Source of the DNA: a virus
Lineage: Duplodnaviria; Heunggongvirae; Uroviricota; Caudoviricetes
Reading direction: 5' to 3' (one strand)
Virus record (IMG/VR): IMGVR_UViG_3300025913_000020
DNA: 64,000 bases
Shown: piece by piece, positions 19,541 to 50,675 of the stretch
Numbering within the stretch: the first letter of the stretch is position 1
Layout: each line of letters starts with the position of its first letter
The notes under the pieces: generated by a model
Database searches by the model: none
What the model was told of the DNA's origin: nothing
The model's input: only the letters and a program-made list of their open reading frames with translations
Translations under genes and position numbers: made by a program

Positions 19541-20475
19541 TTGGTGGTTGCGTGGTTTTTCAGGAAGTCGGCATAGGCAATCTTCAGGCCCGCTTCCAGG
19601 GTTACGGACGGCTTCCATCCTAGCGCCATGACCTTGGAGCTGTCCACAAATTTGATCGGGGTGCCGACGACGCCCTTCGGGTCGAACACCAGTTGGTCGC
19701 GCCCGAGGCCCACGGTGTCAGCTACCAGCTCCGCCAGTTCTCGGATCGAAATGTCCGTGCCGTAGCCGATATTGATCGGGGCTTCGTCGTTGTAATTTTC
19801 CATCACCGTGACGCAGGCGGCAGCCAGGTCGTCGGAGTACAGGAACTCCCGGCGCGCCGTGCCGTCGCCCCAGACGTGGACGTGCTCCTGGCCGCTGACC
19901 TTTGCCTGGTAGAACTTGCGGATCAGGTCCGGGATGACGTGGCAGCCGGGCTTGTAGGTGTCATTGATACCGTACAGGTTCGTCGGCATGACGCTGATGA
20001 AGTTGTCACCAGACTGTTTACGGTACGCCTGGCACAGTTTCAGGCCGGTGATCTTGGCCAAGGCGTAAAATTCATTGCTCGGTTCCAGCGGTCCGGTCAT
20101 CAGGTATTCTTCCTTGATCGGCTGCGGACAGAGCTTCGGGTAGATGCACGAGCTGCCGAAGAACATGAGCTTTTTAACGCCCGTGACGTGCGCTGTTTCG
20201 ATGACGTTGAGCTGGATTTCCAGATTGGTGACCAGCATCGACACCGGTTGCTTCATGTTGCCTTCGATCCCGGCGACTTTAGCTGCCGCCAGGAAGACGT
20301 ATTCCGGTTCATGCTTCAGAAAGAATTTCACCGTCTGACCGATGTCGGTCAAATCGAGTTCGCTCCGGGGTGCGGAGAGAAGATTAGTGAAACCTTGGGC
20401 AGTGAGCTGGCGCATCAACGCAGAGCCGACGAGGCCCTTGTGACCGCACACGAGGATTTTGGAGTTCTTGTTCAT
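19537..20475 (-). CDS. fcl: GDP-L-fucose synthase (GDP-4-keto-6-deoxymannose 3,5-epimerase/4-reductase)
   Basis: 312 aa; [15 protein letters not shown] Rossmann motif, [18 protein letters not shown] catalytic YxxxK; immediately downstream of gmd. Confidence 0.85.
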
Positions 20476-21485
20476 TTTGGGTTTTTGCGTACGTCTTCGA
20501 TGTCGGCCTGCACCATTTTGCAGACCAGGGATTTGAAATCGACTTCGGGCTTCCAGCCCAATTCCTGTGCTGCTTTCCGGGCGTCACCGCACAGGTAGGG
20601 GACCTCGGACGGACGCATGTATTTCTCGTCCGTCTCAATAAACATGTGATGATCCAGTCCGGCAAACTTAAACGCGTTGAAGGCGAAGTTCTTCACGCTG
20701 TGGGCCTCCCCGGTCGCGATGACGTAATCGTTCGGTTTGTCCATTTGCAGCATCATCCACATGGCGCGCACGTAGTCCTCGGCGTCGCCCCAGTCGCGCT
20801 TCGCATCCAGGTTCCCGAGCGCCACTTTCTCTTGCAGTCCGGCTTTGATCCTGGCCACGGCACGGGTGATCTTGCGCGTGACGAAGGTTTCTCCCCGGCG
20901 CGGGCTTTCGTGGTTGAACAGGATGCCGCAGCTAATATGCAGTCCATGTGCCTCTCGGGCATTGACGCACATGTTGTGCGCAAAAACTTTGGCTGCCGCG
21001 TAGGGTGAGCGCGGGTGGAATCGGGTGGTTTCATTCTGAACCAGTTTCCCGTCAACAGTTGACATCGAGGTCCCGTACATTTCCGAGGAGGACGCCTGGT
21101 AGAAGCGCGCCTTCGGGCAGACGAGGCGGAAGGACTCCAGCAGATTCAGCGTGCCGATCCCAGTCACCTGAGCCGTGTAAACGGGCTGCTCGAAGCTGAC
21201 TTTTACGTGGGATTGTGCGGCCAGGTTGTAAATCTCGTCCGGCTGGACCTTCGCCAGAATGTGGTGCAGCGAAACGGAATCCATCATGTCGCCGTGGTGC
21301 AGGTGCAGCTTGTCGAAGATGTGGTCGATCCGGCTGGTGTTGAAGGTCGAACTGCGCCGCATAATACCGTGGACCTCGTAACCCTTCCTCAATAAAAGCT
21401 CTGCCAGGTAGGAGCCGTCCTGGCCGGTAATGCCTGTGATCAAAGCCTTTTTGGTTGGTTGCTCGGATGTGGATTCGGTCGTCAT
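20472..21485 (-). CDS. gmd: GDP-mannose 4,6-dehydratase
   Basis: 337 aa; [49 protein letters not shown] (YxxxK) are canonical GMD motifs. Confidence 0.9.
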
Positions 21486-34468: not shown

Positions 34469-35626
34469 TTATTTGAGGACGGGTGCCGGAGTGGTTGCCG
34501 GAGTAACCGCAGGCGTGGTCTTGACGCCGACCATCATCTGTTCGACGGAGTCCATGAAGCTGGACGTGAGCAGGTTCACTTTCATGTCCTGCGGCAGCCA
34601 GCCCTTCACGCCCGAGAACGCGGGTGCGACCTGCTTGGCGATCTCGATGCGGGCGAACACGTCGGCACCGGCCACGGCGTAGGATTCGAGCTTCAGCTTG
34701 TTGGCTTGGGCTTCGGCTTCACCACGGGCGAGAATACCCTTGGATTCGGCGATGTCGGCATCACGTTTGCCTTCGGCTTCCAGCACGCGTTTCTGCTGCT
34801 CGGCTTTGGCGGCGATGATTGCCTTTTCGTTGTCGGCTTCCGCTTTCAAGATGGTGACCTGCTTGTCCCGGTCAGCCCCCACGATCTGGGTGTTGGCGTC
34901 GGCCTGGGCTTTGGCTTTGGCCACCAGCGCTTCTGCTTCAGCGGCCTTCTGCTCCTCCACGGCGCGCAACTGGCGCTGCACCGCGACCTGTTTGCCTTTG
35001 ATTTCCTCGATGTATTTCGGGTCCAGGGCAATGTGCTCGACCACGAAATTTTCCACGATGATGCCGCGCTGAGGCAGCTCCGCGCTGGCCTGGTCCTGGC
35101 CTTTGCCTTGCAGCGCGTTCTGGATGTTCTGCTGGAGCGTCACGAGGCCGGAGCCGGAGTAGGCGTCAAGAGCTTTCATCTTGGTGGCTTCGTCTTTGAC
35201 GACGCGCATCACGACCGGGCGAATCAGCTTTTCCTCAATGTCCGTGCGGACGGTTTTGTGGATGCTGACCAGGTTGGTCGGATTCAGCCGCCAGCGGATG
35301 TTCATCGAGATCGTCATGTCTTGGCCCTCCTGGGACTGCACCAGGTAGGCGTCAGTGGCGCGGCCTTCGCCCTTTTCTTCAGGCGTGGTGTTGTTATTCA
35401 TCACGAAGATGCGCGAGGAGGCGTCGTACGTGATGATCTTCTGGCTCCAGGCAGGGATCAGAACTTGCAGGCCGGGCTGATAGACTTTGTCTTCGACGCC
35501 GTCGTGCCAGGTTTCCTTGATGCCGAGTTCATTGCCTTTGATCATCTTGTAGTTCACGCACTGCAAAAGCAGGAACATTACGATGATGACGGCGATAGCG
35601 CCGCCGATTAGTTTTCGTGGATTCAT
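34469..35626 (-). CDS. SPFH/band-7 (HflK/C-, flotillin-like) membrane protein
   Basis: start MNPRKLIGGAIAVIIVMFLLL (TM helix), SPFH-type core, then long Ala/Glu/Lys-rich coiled coil (EAEALVAKAKAQADA...EAEAQANKLKLE). Confidence 0.75.
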   Translation of the reverse strand: MNPRKLIGGAIAVIIVMFLLLQCVNYKMIKGNELGIKETWHDGVEDKVYQPGLQVLIPAWSQKIITYDASSRIFVMNNNTTPEEKGEGRATDAYLVQSQEGQDMTISMNIRWRLNPTNLVSIHKTVRTDIEEKLIRPVVMRVVKDEATKMKALDAYSGSGLVTLQQNIQNALQGKGQDQASAELPQRGIIVENFVVEHIALDPKYIEEIKGKQVAVQRQLRAVEEQKAAEAEALVAKAKAQADANTQIVGADRDKQVTILKAEADNEKAIIAAKAEQQKRVLEAEGKRDADIAESKGILARGEAEAQANKLKLESYAVAGADVFARIEIAKQVAPAFSGVKGWLPQDMKVNLLTSSFMDSVEQMMVGVKTTPAVTPATTPAPVLK

Positions 35627-35670
35627 ATTGGATTCTTCTGTTTTTGGTTTGGTGGTCCTTCGTCGTGCTG

Positions 35671-35895
35671 TCATAGCCGTTTCCAGAGAACGGAAAGCGT
35701 GGCGTAAATGAGGTAGCCGATGAAAATAAAGGTCACGAAGGGAAGCGCCACCCGCACTTCAGCTTCTCTTTCGATCACCATTACGAGAAACAACGCCACC
35801 CAGATCACGCCAATGATCGCCAGGATTTTAATGTGGCGTTTGAATTTTGGATCGGTTTCCTTGGGAGCGCCGTTTTTAGAGGGTTCTTTGGCCAT
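35671..35895 (-). CDS. small two-TM membrane protein (possible NfeD-like partner of SPFH protein)
   Basis: 74 aa; ILAIIGVIWVALFLVMVI and FVTFIFIGYLIYATLSVL; ATGA-type overlap with SPFH gene. Confidence 0.45.
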   Translation of the reverse strand: MAKEPSKNGAPKETDPKFKRHIKILAIIGVIWVALFLVMVIEREAEVRVALPFVTFIFIGYLIYATLSVLWKRL

Positions 35896-38447: not shown

Positions 38448-38481
38448 GTGAAAAATGTAAACAATTTATTGTTGGTGTCAA
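38448..38481 (-). promoter_or_regulatory. sigma70-like promoter on minus strand: TTGACA(38481-38476)-16 nt-TACATT(38459-38454)-6 nt-ATG(38447); -10 lies inside palindromic motif
   Basis: hexamers and spacing read directly; predicts leaderless transcript. Confidence 0.55.
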
Positions 38482-41587: not shown

Positions 41588-42103
41588 TCAATGAAAATAT
41601 CCGATATTAGAAATTCTCCTGCCGCCTTTCGGGGTGCGCCCGAAACGACTGAGGAATTCGAACTTGATGCTGTCTGACTCTGCCCTGTCCATCTCTGGCG
41701 TGGATCGGCTGCCGAGTGCTTCGAACACGGCGCACTGCGCCTGCATGTCTCGCACTTCGTCCCGGCCATCCACCTGAAATTTATCAGAAGGTTTCTGCGC
41801 GTAGCACTTGGGATCAGAGCAACCGGAGCTGAAGAAGTATTCGAAAGCCACGAGGAACGATGTCGCGCTGAGATCAGTCAGGTTCTCGACAAATTCCAGG
41901 AAGCAGGCTGCGTGCTCCGGGCTGTAATCCTTTTTGATGCCGTCATGGATCATCTCCAGGTGGGTTGGACCGAGGTCGCCGCGCTTGGGTCCCCGCCCGG
42001 CGTAATAGCCAGAGCGCGCCAGCAACCGGCCAGAGCACCAGGCGTCAATGGCTTCGTAAAAGCTGGCCGGTGGATTCGTGGGTTTGGGTAGTTCTTTTTT
42101 CAT
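41588..42103 (-). CDS. hypothetical protein (171 aa)
   Basis: complete ORF; small hairpin TTTCGGG-gtgcg-CCCGAAA in 3-prime end. Confidence 0.45.
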   Translation of the reverse strand: MKKELPKPTNPPASFYEAIDAWCSGRLLARSGYYAGRGPKRGDLGPTHLEMIHDGIKKDYSPEHAACFLEFVENLTDLSATSFLVAFEYFFSSGCSDPKCYAQKPSDKFQVDGRDEVRDMQAQCAVFEALGSRSTPEMDRAESDSIKFEFLSRFGRTPKGGRRISNIGYFH

Positions 42104-42324
42104 TATGGGTATTGGGTGAGGGAGTCCCAGGTCGGCAGGTTATACTGCGCGTCCGCGCTGAGACGTTTGTTTTCTTCTTTCCGCCACGCGATTTCATGGT
42201 AGTAGCACGCGTGACAAATAATCAGATTGCCGTGGTGCGGATTCTTGCCGAGGGGCAGAACTCGCACTTCGCCGGTCGCGCTTTGGCAATGAGACCCGTC
42301 GCAGTTGGGATTCAGGTTTGCCAT
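42103..42324 (-). CDS. small Cys/His-rich protein
   Basis: start MANLNPNCDGSHCQ...ICHACYYHE. Confidence 0.35.
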   Translation of the reverse strand: MANLNPNCDGSHCQSATGEVRVLPLGKNPHHGNLIICHACYYHEIAWRKEENKRLSADAQYNLPTWDSLTQYP

Positions 42325-42325
42325 A

Positions 42326-43786
42326 TCACAGCTTTCGGTCGCGGATCGCCTGGGCCAGTTTGGAACCAATCATGGTCAGTGCCTTGTAGTACTCCTCGCT
42401 CAGGTGATTCTCGCTGTACTCGTGGCCGAACTCGTGGATGATCAGGTCATCAATTTCCTGCTGGTTCGTCTCACGATTGAACCAGTCGTAGCCGAGCCGA
42501 CCGACGTTGAACACCAGGGTCCCGCTCGGGCCGTAAGTGGCACCGTAGGGCCAGGTTGCTTCCGCCGCAAAGACCACGCTGATACTTTTGCCGAGCACGA
42601 TCCGGGCGAACGCTTTGGCGTAAGTTTCCACGTGCTGCATCCCGACCGTTACTTCCTTGACCAGCTTCAATGGCGCGCCGTCCGGGCTGTAGGGCTTGGG
42701 TGAAGGCGTGACCTGACCGGCAGGCAGCATCGCGCCCACGCTCTTGACGTTACTCCAGGCGGCCTTGCTGAGCTGATTGCCGGTGACCACCGTGAAGCCA
42801 GCGGCAGCGGCACGGCTGTTGGATTCGATGTCGGACGGATCGTAGATGACGCGTTTCTCACCGAAGCGCTGAGTCATGCACGCCTCGACCGCTGCGGGTG
42901 CGATGTCCGGTGAAGTCAAAGCTTCAGCGGCCCAGGACGTGTTGGCATCCTCGCTGTCGATGATTGTTGACATGTTATTCACAGCGGCTACTGCGAGCTG
43001 TTTTCGGAAGGAAGGCAGGACTTCTTCACGGTCCATCGTGAGCGGAACTTTCTGACCCACGTTGAAGATGTATTTGCCGTCGATCTCGCACACGGGTATC
43101 CCCATCTCGTAGATGGCAGCCGGGCAGCCTTCGCCGGGAACAGCGCGGTAAACTTCCACATTCGTCAGCCGGGTGGTTTTGACCATGTTGCCTTCACCGT
43201 CAGCGACCTCAGTGGCCAGGGCAGCTTTGAATCGCGTCATGCCCGGCGCACTGACGAGGGCTTTGCCGTTGATAGTCGTGATGATGGTCTTTTCGCCAAC
43301 CGGAGGAATCAGCCGAGCGCAGGCATTTACAATCTGGTCGATCTCGTCCTTTTTCACGCGAATCATCATTGAGATCACCGAACCCTTTTCCCGCTTCAAT
43401 CCTGGCGACCGTTGCCTGCCGTGTTTGGTAAAATTGACGGTGCCGGTGGTTGTGGAGACGCAGGCTTCTGAAGCGAGGGCCAGCACCAGCTTCTCGCCGA
43501 GGTTGAACCGACCGCGCTTTTCCGGGTTGGCCTTTTTCTTGGACTCAGCGAACAAGGTGTAGGCGTGCGTGAGGTCAGAGAATCCATCCGGCGCATCGTC
43601 CGTCACACGCAGCATCGCCTGGCCAGGATACCCCGGCACCGACTCAAGCGTGACATCGACCTGAGTGACGCCTTCTTCGTCCCAGGCATTCTGGATCAGT
43701 TCAAAGATAATGAACTCCTTGCCCTTGCGCTGGAGGATTTTCGCCAGCCCGTCTTTGTCTATTTCAAACCATGATGAAGTTTTCAT
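42326..43786 (-). CDS. GHKL-type (Bergerat-fold) ATPase fused to C-terminal HExxHxxxxxH zinc-metallopeptidase-like motif
   Basis: N-box ELIQNAWDE, G1 DDAPDGFSD, G2 GRFNLGEK; C-terminal LIIHEFGHEYSENH; real start MKTSSWFEIDKDG 7 nt after -10. Confidence 0.6.
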   Translation of the reverse strand: MKTSSWFEIDKDGLAKILQRKGKEFIIFELIQNAWDEEGVTQVDVTLESVPGYPGQAMLRVTDDAPDGFSDLTHAYTLFAESKKKANPEKRGRFNLGEKLVLALASEACVSTTTGTVNFTKHGRQRSPGLKREKGSVISMMIRVKKDEIDQIVNACARLIPPVGEKTIITTINGKALVSAPGMTRFKAALATEVADGEGNMVKTTRLTNVEVYRAVPGEGCPAAIYEMGIPVCEIDGKYIFNVGQKVPLTMDREEVLPSFRKQLAVAAVNNMSTIIDSEDANTSWAAEALTSPDIAPAAVEACMTQRFGEKRVIYDPSDIESNSRAAAAGFTVVTGNQLSKAAWSNVKSVGAMLPAGQVTPSPKPYSPDGAPLKLVKEVTVGMQHVETYAKAFARIVLGKSISVVFAAEATWPYGATYGPSGTLVFNVGRLGYDWFNRETNQQEIDDLIIHEFGHEYSENHLSEEYYKALTMIGSKLAQAIRDRKL

Positions 43787-43793
43787 ACTCAGG

Positions 43794-43834
43794 ATTGTAA
43801 ACAATTACAGTCCAATGTCAATACACAAAGTGTA
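43794..43834 (-). promoter_or_regulatory. sigma70-like promoter on minus strand: TTGACA(43821-43816)-16 nt-TACAAT(43799-43794)-7 nt-ATG(43786), plus upstream element TCAATACACAAAGTGTA
   Basis: read directly; second element recurs at 46141-46160. Confidence 0.55.
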
Positions 43835-43847
43835 TTTATTTTACCCT

Positions 43848-44186
43848 TTATTTAATAGGCTTTAATGCGTCATCGTGCGATTTGACTAGGCGCTTTAGTT
43901 TCAAGCTGAAGGGCGTATCACCGGAGCGTAGAGGCGGTAATTCCTCTGTCGTTTTCCTGTTCCTGGCCAGCGCCACGGCGGTCTTAAATGGGTTGGGCAG
44001 CTTGAATCCGCCCACCCGGTTCAAGTGGACCCAGATCGCGGCCCAGTAGCCGAACATCTGGAACTTGTAGCGGGCCAGGGCGTCCCAGGCTTTCTTCTCC
44101 GCTTCTTCCAGGTCGGCTCGAAGGCGCGCCTCGATGTCGGTTACAGCGCTGCCACTTCGAATCTGCTTTTTTGTATCGGTTTCCAT
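43848..44186 (-). CDS. hypothetical protein (112 aa)
   Basis: start METDTKKQ; overlaps next gene 46 nt. Confidence 0.35.
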   Translation of the reverse strand: METDTKKQIRSGSAVTDIEARLRADLEEAEKKAWDALARYKFQMFGYWAAIWVHLNRVGGFKLPNPFKTAVALARNRKTTEELPPLRSGDTPFSLKLKRLVKSHDDALKPIK

Positions 44187-44590
44187 ACGATTGTTTTTCG
44201 GTCCTGGTATCCGGGCACCAGGAGCTTTTTGAATTCCATGTAGAGGTTGTTGCTGACACCGCGTGCAGCCGGGTGCGGCACTGACAGCATGGGTCCGCTC
44301 CATATCCAGGCCAGGGCGTTCTCGGCCTGCTTGCCGCAGGTGATCACGATCTCGGGGGCGCGCTCGGCCAGGACGTTGAGGATGTGCCCGTTGTCCGGCG
44401 CTACGACGCTGTTGGGAGCCTCGCCCACTATGGGGGTGGTGTTCTCGCAGATGGACAGGTCATCCACCAGGTAAATCAGGCGCTGACCGGAGCGAGATCG
44501 GGCCAGAGCGCGCAGCCAGGACTCACGCGGCCAGCGGCGTCCGGCATAGACCGGCGACCAGGCGTTCTGGAGGAAGACTACGGCTTTCAT
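44141..44590 (-). CDS. uracil-DNA glycosylase superfamily-like protein (tentative)
   Basis: start MKAVVFLQNAW; IVGEAPNSVVAPDNGHILNVL resembles UDG motif A (GEAPG...G..L..L) and SVPHPAARG resembles motif B (HPS). Confidence 0.4.
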   Translation of the reverse strand: MKAVVFLQNAWSPVYAGRRWPRESWLRALARSRSGQRLIYLVDDLSICENTTPIVGEAPNSVVAPDNGHILNVLAERAPEIVITCGKQAENALAWIWSGPMLSVPHPAARGVSNNLYMEFKKLLVPGYQDRKTIVWKPIQKSRFEVAAL

Positions 44591-45108
44591 ATCGCTTCTT
44601 TCGCTAGAACCAGCTCCACTTTCTCGACGCCGATTTTGCGTTGATCTCTCCACCAGCTTTCACGCCCCCAGTTGATGGCTAGGAGCTGCGCTTTCGCGGG
44701 GTCGTTGGCATACACTCCAATGCTGACTTTGGGAGCGGAGTCGCCCCACAGCGTGACATGATAGTCAAACGCACCGGACCCGATATGAAGCAGGTCGCGG
44801 CGTTCGGCTTCCTCCGCTGTGATCGTCGGGAAATCGGTAGGCGCTGGAATTGTGCTCCAGGACTGTGAGGTCGGGAGCGACTTGATTCCCTGCGGGCGCT
44901 TCCGACTGCAATACTTTCCATCCTTGGCGACCATTTTACCGGAGAGCAGATCAATCACGACGCCTTTGAATTTAGCCGTGTATTCGCACGCTGATTTTAT
45001 ATCAAAGTGCCGGTCGCGGGCGACCCAGTGATTGAATCGTCCGATCCAGGAGAAGACGAGATAGTTGCAGGGGCGTTTGTCGGTGATGGTTTGGGTGATA
45101 GTGTTCAT
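44587..45108 (-). CDS. hypothetical protein (173 aa)
   Basis: ATGA overlap. Confidence 0.45.
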   Translation of the reverse strand: MNTITQTITDKRPCNYLVFSWIGRFNHWVARDRHFDIKSACEYTAKFKGVVIDLLSGKMVAKDGKYCSRKRPQGIKSLPTSQSWSTIPAPTDFPTITAEEAERRDLLHIGSGAFDYHVTLWGDSAPKVSIGVYANDPAKAQLLAINWGRESWWRDQRKIGVEKVELVLAKEAI

Positions 45109-46109: not shown

Positions 46110-46116
46110 GCCAGAA

Positions 46117-46160
46117 ATGTAAACGAAATAGAATTGTTGTCAATACCCAAAGTGTAAATA
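46117..46160 (-). promoter_or_regulatory. sigma70-like promoter on minus strand: TTGACA(46144-46139)-16 nt-TACATT(46122-46117)-6/7 nt-ATG(46109), plus element TCAATACCCAAAGTGTAAAT
   Basis: read directly (coordinates +/-1). Confidence 0.5.
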
Positions 46161-46274: not shown

Positions 46275-46475
46275 GTGCGTATGAAATTTCGCTTAATAGC
46301 AGCACCGGTTGAGCGAGGGGACCTAAACAGGATTTTCTCTCTGTTCGAAGTCGCGCAATTCCTCGAAATAGCTGTTGAAGACCTGGCCCTGCGCGGAAAA
46401 CTCTCGGGAAACGTCAGCCTGGATGGCTATACTTTCGAGGTTGTTCGCAGCGTGCAGGGTTCAAGTTTCAAATAG
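46275..46475 (+). CDS. excisionase/MerR-like HTH_17-type small DNA-binding protein (tentative)
   Basis: 66 aa, GTG start; SLFEVAQFLEIAVEDLALRGKLSG fits E-V-A-x-x-L-x-I-x-x-x-x-L-x-x-x-x-x-G-K-L pattern of Xis/AlpA-type HTH. Confidence 0.4.
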   Translation: MRMKFRLIAAPVERGDLNRIFSLFEVAQFLEIAVEDLALRGKLSGNVSLDGYTFEVVRSVQGSSFK

Positions 46476-48221
46476 CGTTGCGCTGGCTCGGATTCTCAGC
46501 TCGCGATCCTGTTCCATCAGGTCGGGAGCGCGCAGGGCTGTTAGCGCGTTTCCAAACGTGCTGGAGTTCACGCTGTATCCCGTCGCGTCTGAAATCTCCT
46601 GGCGCGTGGCAAACTCCGGGAAGCGCGTCAGCAGGTAACTGAAAATCTTTCCCGCTGCGCCGCTCAGCTTATTCACCCAGAGATTTCTCAGAGCTTCACC
46701 TTTTGGCAACGGTTCAAAGTTTTTCAACAGGGCGCGAGCCTCGGGTATTGCAGTCAGCGTGTCGCCGCTGCGGATGATCGCGTTGTTTTTGGAAAGCTCG
46801 GTCAGCCCGTTGCCGAACGTGCTTGAAGTCACGCTGTAGCCGGATAGAAGCGCGGCCTGGCTGCGGGTCCGCCCTTCGGGATAACTGAGCAGCACGGTCA
46901 GAATCGCTGACGCACACTTGGAAAGTCCACCCGAGGATGGATCATGCACCGGCGATGAAAAATCGTGCCGAGTGGCGACAACTGGAGCCGGGATCGCCTT
47001 GGGTGCTACCGGTGTCGCAACCGCCATACTCGTCTTCTGGATCACGATCAATTTGTTTACAATATCGGTGCGTAGCGCTACCGCCTGATTGGCCAGCTCA
47101 GAGAAGTTCACCACCGTCTTGCTGAAAGTAGTGCAGGCTTCCTCGATTCGCTTCAGAGTTTTTTCCTGCTCGGGCGTTAGCACGGGAACTTCGACCTTTT
47201 CGATTCGCGTGTCCACGACCGTCACCGGCCTGGGCGCGACAGCGGCCTGTTCCGCTTTTACCAGCTTTTGTTTCAAAACAGCCACTTGTTGTTTCAAATG
47301 GGCCGGATCATTCTCGTTGGCGCGCTCAATCGTTTCACGAATCTCATTTCCCAGGCGCACGAGATCGACCTTGGCCAGCTTTTGCGGGATGATGACTTTT
47401 TCACCTGCCTTGGGCGTGGCTGATGAGTTGAAGGTCCGGCGCTGCCGGATGGTGATCCGTTGAAAGATGCGCAGCCAGCCGGGCGACCATATCCAGCCCT
47501 CGCCGGTGTGAAGCGATGCCAGGGACTGCATCATGATGTCGCGCTGTTCCTTCGTGCCGTTGCGCTTCACCCAATCGTCGATGGCGTCCTGGTCCTGGGG
47601 CGAGTTGAGCTGAAGTACGATCAACAGTTCGGTCTGAGTGAAGACATTCTTATTGAGCACAGCCGGGCGCTGCGTGATCAGCGTCGTGCCAATCCCACGG
47701 ATGCCTCCCCGGCGCACCAGGGCTTCGAAGGCTCCGAGCATTCGCTGCTGGCCGTCCTGGGGTTTCTGGGGAGCGAAAGAGTCGGCTTCGTCCACGAACA
47801 GGTGCAGCGGATTGCGGTTTTGATTTTTACGCCGGTAGAGGCGTTCGGCAAAGTCAGTGGCGAAGCGATCCTGCTGTGCGTTGCTTTCGGTCGAGGAGAG
47901 GTCGATGACGTAGTAGCCAGGATGGTCAACCACCATGTCGGCGATGACCCGGCCTGCCGTATATTCCAGTGGAACGTCCGCGTGCTCACCGCCGATGATC
48001 ACCACTGGCAAACCTTCGCGCAGACCGTTTGCTGATGAACGCAGGCCCCACCAGGCACCGGTCGGATCGAGCACGGCAAACGGCTGTGACGCCGCCACCA
48101 GCTCCTCGGCGATCACCGATCCTGTGTAGGTCTTACCGACCCGGCGCATGGCCATGATGGAACACGTCTGGGTGACGAAATCCAACGGCAGCGTCAGTTC
48201 CTTTGAGATTTTGAGGCTCAT
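46461..48221 (-). CDS. FtsK/HerA-superfamily P-loop ATPase with two C-terminal tandem winged-HTH (FtsK-gamma-like) repeats
   Basis: 586 aa; Walker A AMRRVGKTY, FAVLDPTGAWWG, Walker B LHLFVDEAD; C-terminal repeats ...SGYSVTSSTFGNGLTEL... and ...TGYSVNSSTFGNALTAL... Confidence 0.7.
   Translation of the reverse strand: MSLKISKELTLPLDFVTQTCSIMAMRRVGKTYTGSVIAEELVAASQPFAVLDPTGAWWGLRSSANGLREGLPVVIIGGEHADVPLEYTAGRVIADMVVDHPGYYVIDLSSTESNAQQDRFATDFAERLYRRKNQNRNPLHLFVDEADSFAPQKPQDGQQRMLGAFEALVRRGGIRGIGTTLITQRPAVLNKNVFTQTELLIVLQLNSPQDQDAIDDWVKRNGTKEQRDIMMQSLASLHTGEGWIWSPGWLRIFQRITIRQRRTFNSSATPKAGEKVIIPQKLAKVDLVRLGNEIRETIERANENDPAHLKQQVAVLKQKLVKAEQAAVAPRPVTVVDTRIEKVEVPVLTPEQEKTLKRIEEACTTFSKTVVNFSELANQAVALRTDIVNKLIVIQKTSMAVATPVAPKAIPAPVVATRHDFSSPVHDPSSGGLSKCASAILTVLLSYPEGRTRSQAALLSGYSVTSSTFGNGLTELSKNNAIIRSGDTLTAIPEARALLKNFEPLPKGEALRNLWVNKLSGAAGKIFSYLLTRFPEFATRQEISDATGYSVNSSTFGNALTALRAPDLMEQDRELRIRASATLFET
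47048..47068 (-). promoter_or_regulatory. internal motif copy TCAATTTGTTTACAATATCGG inside ATPase gene, 23 nt upstream of in-frame ATG at 47027
   Basis: would express the C-terminal 188-aa tandem wHTH part separately. Confidence 0.3.
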
Positions 48222-50617: not shown

Positions 50618-50642
50618 GTGAAAAATGTAAACAATTTTTTGC
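50618..50642. promoter_or_regulatory. motif GTGAAAAATGTAAACAATTTTTTGC in divergent region
   Basis: 7 nt from minus ATG 50614; 38 nt from plus ATG 50676. Confidence 0.55.
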
Positions 50643-50675
50643 TTACGTCAACGACGAAGTTCGTTCTTTAAGGAT

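Follow-up and report, generated by a model that had tools for sequence, protein, structure and literature searches.

The 64,000-nucleotide stretch of DNA analysed here (hereafter the window), from the Caudoviricetes record IMGVR_UViG_3300025913_000020 of IMG/VR, carries a gene for a protein in which a GHKL-type ATPase is joined to a minimal zinc metallopeptidase of the zincin class. An original prediction made from the letters alone had located such a fusion at 42326..43786, coordinates that are correct, and had not stated the strand, which is minus, as for all features of the window described below. The coding sequence is complete, with an ATG start (MKTSSWFEIDKDG), 486 codons for amino acids (aa) and a stop codon, and the plus-strand translation of the same interval is riddled with stops. 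An alternative TTG start (to 43804) would take in the -10 hexamer of the promoter of the gene; in the alignment, homologs of the protein begin at the ATG-equivalent position, and the ATG is therefore the true start.

From its N-terminus, the protein consists of a Bergerat-fold (GHKL) ATP-binding domain (residues 1-124; 43415..43786), a second domain, the transducer of the GHL class (residues 125-254; 43025..43414), a small alpha/beta domain with a conserved DPSDxExN...G...W pattern (residues 255-354; 42725..43024), a proline-rich conserved linker, PAGQVTPSPKPYSPDG (residues 355-377; 42656..42724), and a minimal zincin metallopeptidase domain (residues 378-486; 42329..42655). We hold with high confidence that this order of domains represents GHKL ATPase, transducer, a domain resembling the Hsp90 C-terminal domain (CTD), linker and Wss1-like zincin. 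The motifs quoted in the original prediction were all found (ELIQNAWDE, residues 28-36; DDAPDGFSD, 63-71; GRFNLGEK, 92-99; LIIHEFGHEYSENH, 448-461) and their occurrence is far beyond chance.

Conservation was evaluated in an alignment of 42 homologs (45-73% identity). The invariant positions include E29, N33 and D36 of the N-box (43679..43702), D63, P66 and G68 of G1 (D63..G68; 43583..43600), G92, R93, F94, G97 and K99 of G2 (43490..43513), and T113 and G115 in the region of the Thr motif; W6 and F7 at the N-terminus are conserved as well. The G2 motif reads GRFNLG, with one Gly of GxxGxG replaced. The putative active site of the protease, H451-E452-x-x-H455 with H461 as third ligand (42404..42436), is likewise invariant, in agreement with the three-histidine zinc-peptidase motif originally proposed. 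On a wider scale, the N-box ExxxNxxD was recovered in 249 and HExxHx5H in 258 of 269 family members.

Consistent with the prediction of a GHKL ATPase, profile searches of the 42 homologs matched HATPase_c_3 in 27, the sacsin domain PF25794 in 16 and HATPase_c in 13. The target alone gave only marginal signals: a sub-threshold match to the sacsin N-terminal domain in NCBIfam (E 2.9e-5), weak matches to TmtA over the GHKL core only in PADLOC, and no meaningful match in PHROGs. The family profile reached the sacsin SR1 structures (E 0.023), and it is the evidence from the whole family that decides the assignment. At the level of the predicted fold, the N-terminal 200-260 residues matched ATPase-plus-transducer modules, and the scores for residues 1-254 were 14.8 for T6 topoisomerase II, 14.2 for MutL, 14.2 for Top2, 12.8 for MLH1 and 12.3 for MORC2. 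The protein has the N-box, motifs II-IV with the lid and the Bergerat alpha/beta sandwich fold that define GHKL ATPases, and, following the Bergerat domain without a gap, the transducer (ribosomal-S5-like) domain that defines the GHL class. A stretch of low predicted local distance difference test (pLDDT) values, residues ~69-91, is the probable ATP lid, and residues 70-100, flexible and low in pLDDT, occupy the position expected for it. Residues 1-254 form a GHL-class ATPase, by sequence closest to those of the sacsin/Hsp90 type.

The transducer ends in an invariant loop, Q245-K246-V-P248-L-x-x-D252-R253 (43028..43054). In GHL ATPases, the transducer residue that contacts the gamma-phosphate is the Lys of the QTK loop, Lys307 in MutL and Arg380 in Hsp90. 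The Q-K loop recalls QTK in GyrB and topoisomerase II, to which it may be equivalent, and we consider Q245-K246...D252-R253 a candidate gamma-phosphate sensor. Three family members of ~750 aa (P0192, P0250 and P0253) carry a canonical intein, with Cys at its start, a LAGLIDADG-like block and a terminal ...SHN followed by Cys, inserted immediately before the invariant QK(V/I)PL loop. Inteins typically occupy functionally critical sites, and this insertion therefore marks the loop as functionally critical.

We also asked how far the similarity to Hsp90 extends. PF00183, the Pfam HSP90 family, matched no family member, and hhalign of the family against HtpG aligned the N-domains only, with a probability of 9% for a single HtpG and 5% for an 8-sequence profile of diverse HtpG sequences drawn from plasmids; membership in the Hsp90 family was rejected on these grounds. 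With the middle domains alone, hhalign gave a weak alignment (E 0.019), in which QKVPLTMDREEVLPSF(L)R stands opposite QRVFIMDDAEQFMPNYLR, a signature of Hsp90, and IIDSEDAN opposite LIDSSDLP; this is suggestive of an ancestry of the Hsp90/sacsin type. In fold, residues 255-354 are modestly similar to the C-terminal dimerisation domain of Hsp90. The reading of 248-PLTMDRE as the Hsp90 catalytic loop PLNVSRE (HtpG R336) found no support, as hhalign offsets the two by ~19 residues and does not pair R253 with HtpG R336. Separately, a plasmid of Pseudanabaena sp. ABRG5-3 (L182:713-4065) was found to encode an Hsp90-like ATPase, named 'ATP-binding protein', of 877 aa, which is 30% identical to HtpG in its N and M domains. 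Its neighbours, a gene with a TIR domain and one for a large DEAD/DEAH helicase, suggest that it belongs to a defence locus.

The final ~100 residues of the target matched minimal zincins. In the predicted structure, helix 438-456 carries HExxH and the turn that leads into helix 464-482 contains H461, and residues 378-486 comprise, besides the HExxH helix and the third ligand, a backing helix, a mixed beta-sheet and a C-terminal helix, as in zincins; Y466 is nearly invariant. The fold is closest to Wss1, at 6-8% identity. Searches against peptidase families, proposed as a check in the original prediction, returned scattered sub-threshold zincin matches and assigned no curated family. The target alone matched DUF4932 marginally in Pfam (E 0.21) and, by phmmer against PDB, myroilysin around HExxH (also marginal; E 0.03-0.2 for family and target). 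Among 21 C-terminal halves, the sub-threshold matches were to DUF4932 (10), Reprolysin_5 (4), YgjP-like (1) and M48 (1), and WLM (PF08325) and SprT-like (PF10263) gave no match at E<=5 in any of them. By sequence, the domain thus falls in no curated family; by analogy, it may be Wss1/SprT-like in its manner of working, yet it is no demonstrable member of WLM or SprT. Assignment to the metzincins was rejected: the spacing of the His residues matches, but Ser458 replaces the invariant Gly (family consensus HxYSxDH) and there is no room for a Met-turn, only 25 residues, forming one single helix, following H461. The linker that precedes the zincin, with P355, A356, G357 and P361 invariant or nearly so and lower pLDDT in the predicted structure, may act as a tether or an autoinhibitory segment.

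An exhaustive profile search of 1.84 billion cluster representatives recovered 2,369 proteins at E<=1e-3 (~2,400 clusters at 50% identity), of which 1,214 also reached E<=1e-30. Their lengths are strikingly uniform, ~470-520 aa, and the database names encountered were all 'hypothetical protein'. A sister family of ~520-aa bacterial 'ATP-binding proteins', mostly cyanobacterial, comprises at least 288 clusters and shares 26% identity with the target over residues 2-309. It keeps the ATPase motifs and, among 118 full-length members, the Q[KR]VPxxx[DN]R[DE] loop in 110 and HExxHx5H in all 118; its C-terminus, FIHEAAHAMNMHHGEDF, shares the HExxHx5H spacing with the target, and Pfam weakly matched it to YgjP-like. 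The ATPase and protease centres have thus been retained together across a deep split. This joint retention in the main and the sister family is our main argument that the two activities are functionally coupled; we consider the coupling of ATP to the protease about as probable as its opposite.

The gene is found on mobile elements of several kinds. It is present on 217 viral contigs of IMG/VR (45-460 kb), on metagenomic contigs of 60-385 kb with phage-like gene content, in one 485-kb uncultured huge phage, the only match among 50,697 deposited phage records, and on plasmids, namely megaplasmids of Methylibium and Bosea and a linear plasmid of Rhodovastum. In cellular genomes it occurs in 121 of ~185,000 species, which belong to many phyla of bacteria and to several lineages of archaea.

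At the locus itself, a sigma-70-type promoter, TTGACA-N16-TACAAT (43794..43821; 11/12 consensus matches), precedes the gene, confirming the leaderless promoter of the original prediction. Since the -10 hexamer stops 7 nt upstream of the ATG and a Shine-Dalgarno sequence is absent, the transcript is probably leaderless. This promoter is one of four near-identical elements of the form TTGACR-N12-TTGTTTACAWT (38454-38481, 43794-43821, 46116-46143 and 50624-50651), each 6-9 nt from an ATG and without a Shine-Dalgarno sequence; the pattern has 5 matches in the window compared with 0.06 expected by chance. The elements look like a phage-specific class of leaderless transcription units of the type read by host RNA polymerase, which are probably early and dependent on that polymerase.

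A gene for a 73-aa Cys/His protein (MANLNPNCDGSHC...CHACY...; 42103..42324) starts almost directly after the target stop codon and is co-transcribed with the target; it and a 171-aa gene are tightly packed with the target. The operon originally proposed included this gene, which does follow directly, and a gene described as similar to uracil-DNA glycosylase (UDG), at 44141..44593. The latter lies outside the transcription unit of the target, because it is upstream of the promoter and separated from it by another open reading frame (ORF). Sequence searches of Pfam, PHROG and PDB with it were without match, and the gene has no homolog in the other 169 of the 170 loci compared. Its motifs GEAPN and HPA loosely recall GE(A/G)PG and HPS of family-4 uracil-DNA glycosylases. 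Overall, the original interpretation is supported in part. The families of the 73-aa and 171-aa genes are present in only 2 of the 170 loci, and the Cys/His protein is lineage-specific and no conserved partner of the target. As a side observation, an ORF downstream of a homolog on a 230-kb contig (L006:7645-8121) joins a duplicated fragment of the target gene, SFRRQLAVAAMNN (target residues ~259-272), with a sequence homologous to the Cys/His protein of the window (NPNCDG..C..GEVRVLPL..CHxCY..NLPxW), and resembles a recombination scar.

Clustering of neighbouring genes, in 88 and then 170 loci, revealed no partner family in more than 14 loci. A conserved operon or multi-gene system was discarded on this basis, with the Cys/His and UDG-like neighbours being lineage-specific; the gene travels alone and behaves as a stand-alone unit. 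The neighbours that recurred, if loosely, in the 170 loci were serine recombinases (14), orphan N6/N4 DNA methylases (10), an AAA ATPase (5), SprT-like proteins (4) and TnpB. SNF2+DUF5710 helicases lie directly downstream of the gene in 9 loci and are also found on the Rhodovastum plasmid, and the region on the Methylibium plasmid contains, on one strand, two methyltransferases and DUF5131, dUTPase, NADAR and HD-domain genes. The toolkit of the polyvalent proteins that phages and conjugative elements carry has zincin metallopeptidases (MPTases), SNF2 ATPases and methylases as hubs, and GHKL/Hsp90 domains are not mentioned in its description (PMC5512222). The neighbour repertoire of the family overlaps this early-entry and anti-restriction toolkit (PMC5512222).

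Copies on chromosomes and plasmids also have defence systems as neighbours. On the chromosome of Planctomicrobium sp. SH664 (L052:9455-15494), the homolog adjoins genes for a PLD-domain protein, a protein with DUF1998/MZB and a helicase of 1,139 aa, a trio that looks like a DISARM-like core in a defence island, and the copy on the Rhodovastum plasmid adjoins SIR2-HerA. For the sister family, we observed on plasmid pAQ6 of Picosynechococcus PCC 7002 (L090, 5400-11871) a 519-aa GHKL-zincin between a gene with a stand-alone DisA-type diadenylate-cyclase (DAC) domain and a gene for a 1,378-aa CHAT protease. The arrangement may represent a conflict system that uses nucleotide signals, but three other loci of the sister family lacked it and thus gave no support to DAC or CHAT as a conserved partner.

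The window as a whole is phage-like, with nearly all genes on one strand; its products include a terminase-like ATPase, pectate-lyase and BNR tail-fibre-like proteins, and it has genes for sugar metabolism. In a 586-aa protein (46461-48221), the first ~240 residues are similar to a PHROG of the terminase large subunit (E 3.7e-15) and weakly to HerA_C, and the long C-terminal half is without match. A gene of ~590 aa stands at the equivalent upstream position in two close relatives, for one of which (L007) homology to the 586-aa protein was confirmed. A full-length GDP-mannose 4,6-dehydratase (20472-21485; E 8e-130) and an SPFH/Band-7 protein (34469-35674; E 2e-19) suggest, by similarity, auxiliary functions in surface-sugar modification and membrane microdomains.

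The best explanation of these observations is that the protein is a cytoplasmic single-chain enzyme, an ATP-driven clamp joined to a latent zinc protease, encoded by a self-contained 'conflict' gene of mobile elements. Its use by the phage as an ATP-gated clamp-protease for counter-defence or host takeover is the explanation that we favour, and we give it an even chance of being right. GHL ATPases undergo ATP-driven N-terminal dimerisation and clamp closure, and minigluzincins are latent proteases. Wss1 is a latent protease activated by DNA and helped by a separate ATPase, Cdc48 (PMC4559962). From these systems we infer a dimeric, ATP-gated clamp; by the same analogy, the protein is probably a dimer, of which the conserved W6 and F7 and the CTD-like domain are at most indirect hints. 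Binding of ATP would close the lid and dimerise the N-domains, with the transducer loop Q245-K246...D252-R253 sensing the gamma-phosphate, and closure of the clamp would capture a client, either a protein or a DNA-bound protein. The client may then be handed to the tethered zincin, or the zincin unmasked, so that proteolysis would be gated by the ATPase cycle; zinc would be held by H451, H455 and H461, with E452 as the catalytic base. In the phage, the host-type consensus promoter would yield a leaderless mRNA for the protein, whose substrate would most likely be a host protein, such as a nucleoid protein or a restriction or defence protein bound to DNA, destroyed during takeover.

A different direction of the conflict would make the gene a single-gene system for defence or superinfection exclusion, in which the GHKL domain senses a cue from an invader and the protease is an abortive-infection effector that degrades essential proteins of the host or of the invader. 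We consider this rather unlikely, even if several observations agree with it: chromosomal and plasmid copies stand beside the DISARM-like trio and SIR2-HerA, the sister family adjoins CHAT and caspase-like proteases and a DAC-domain gene, and the sporadic spread over 121 of ~185,000 species is typical of defence genes. Defence islands, however, also gather prophage-derived counter-defence genes, and most occurrences of the gene are on phage contigs, often jumbo-sized, among runs of small early-type genes, where orphan methylases and SNF2 helicases are neighbours typical of an invader's own toolkit (PMC5512222). PADLOC did return weak matches to TmtA of the single-gene GHKL system Tiamat, but these are far from significant (E 0.005-0.008) and cover residues 27-123 only, the GHKL core of models of 1,370-1,486 positions, so the protein is not placed in Tiamat.

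An improbable alternative is the clearing of crosslinks or roadblocks for phage replication, with a clamp on DNA similar to those of MutL and topoisomerase II and a Wss1/SprT-like protease directed against trapped proteins, for example topoisomerase adducts. The protein has no recognisable DNA-binding domain and no basic domain (family median pI ~6.2), it lacks the Zn-binding/DNA-binding subdomain of Spartan and the partner motifs of Wss1, its ATPase is by sequence nearer to sacsin/Hsp90 than to MutL or GyrB, and the gene is too sporadic for a core replication function. A phage chaperone-protease for proteome quality control or morphogenesis, with an Hsp90-like clamp and a protease that trims structural proteins or scaffolds, would suit the Hsp90 N-M-C-like layout including the CTD-like domain, the sacsin/Hsp90 affinity of the sequence and the various chaperones and maturation metallopeptidases of jumbo phages (PMC7824862), but is very unlikely given that no link to structural or morphogenesis genes appeared in 170 loci, that the gene also resides on plasmids and in chromosomal defence islands without virion genes, and that a host-type early promoter is atypical of a late-gene context.

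The ATP-gated clamp-protease that we favour has implications beyond this phage. The family is ~480 aa long, self-contained and found in bacterial and archaeal mobile elements, and the characterisation of a single member would lead to the annotation of thousands of genes, of which many belong to jumbo phages with a largely unknown early repertoire. In the case of a counter-defence protease, the substrate would point to the host system that is defeated; in the case of a defence gene, a new single-gene system would be added.

Among known systems, the closest to the zincin half are the crosslink metalloproteases Wss1/WLM and SprT (Spartan) and the archaeal minigluzincins projannalysin, proabylysin and selecase. 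The ATPase half is related in kind to Hsp90 (HtpG, TRAP1, Grp94) and sacsin, but is shorter, ~354 compared with ~620 aa, has no aligned equivalent of the catalytic-loop Arg (PLNVSRE) and no charged linker or MEEVD motif; we know of no Hsp90 with a protease domain. The clamps of MutL, topoisomerase II and MORC share the ATPase-plus-transducer arrangement and gave the highest fold scores for residues 1-254, whereas the Toprim, endonuclease and MutL C-terminal domains, the coiled coil and a charge-based DNA-binding surface are absent from the target. Phage conflict proteins of the T4 rIIA type have an N-terminal GHKL ATPase (PMC7824862) and a variable C-terminus. Foldseek against BFVD returned rIIA matches (E 1e-7 to 1e-5), and a relationship with rIIA was rejected because the match does not extend beyond the generic GHKL module and other GHKL proteins, such as Hsp90 and topoisomerases, match at least as well; unlike the target, rIIA proteins have 650-1,000 aa and no zincin domain. 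ArdC and the zincin 'MPTase' of polyvalent proteins likewise combine a mobile-element targeting module with a Spartan-like zincin, and their elements share the neighbour repertoire of the target family (SNF2 helicases, DNA methylases, SprT-like proteins). A counter-restriction role has been demonstrated for ArdC (PMC7213743) and proposed for polyvalent zincins (PMC5512222).

In conclusion, both domains of the protein belong to known superfamilies; the literature searched contains no description of a GHKL ATPase combined with a zincin. To our knowledge, every well-studied ATP-dependent protease (Lon, FtsH, ClpXP/AP, HslUV and the proteasome) uses an AAA+ motor, and the Wss1/Spartan proteases borrow a separate AAA+ motor, Cdc48/p97. 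Only tentatively, and with some doubt, do we propose that the family forms a mechanistically new class among ATP-dependent proteases, in which a dimeric GHKL clamp and not an AAA+ ring would drive substrate capture and proteolysis, and which, in bacteria and archaea, phages, plasmids and defence islands would use as a stand-alone weapon against a specific DNA-bound or defence protein of the opponent. A protease wired to a GHKL clamp would, if true, be a different engineering solution from that of the AAA+ proteases and would widen the known roles of GHKL ATPases.

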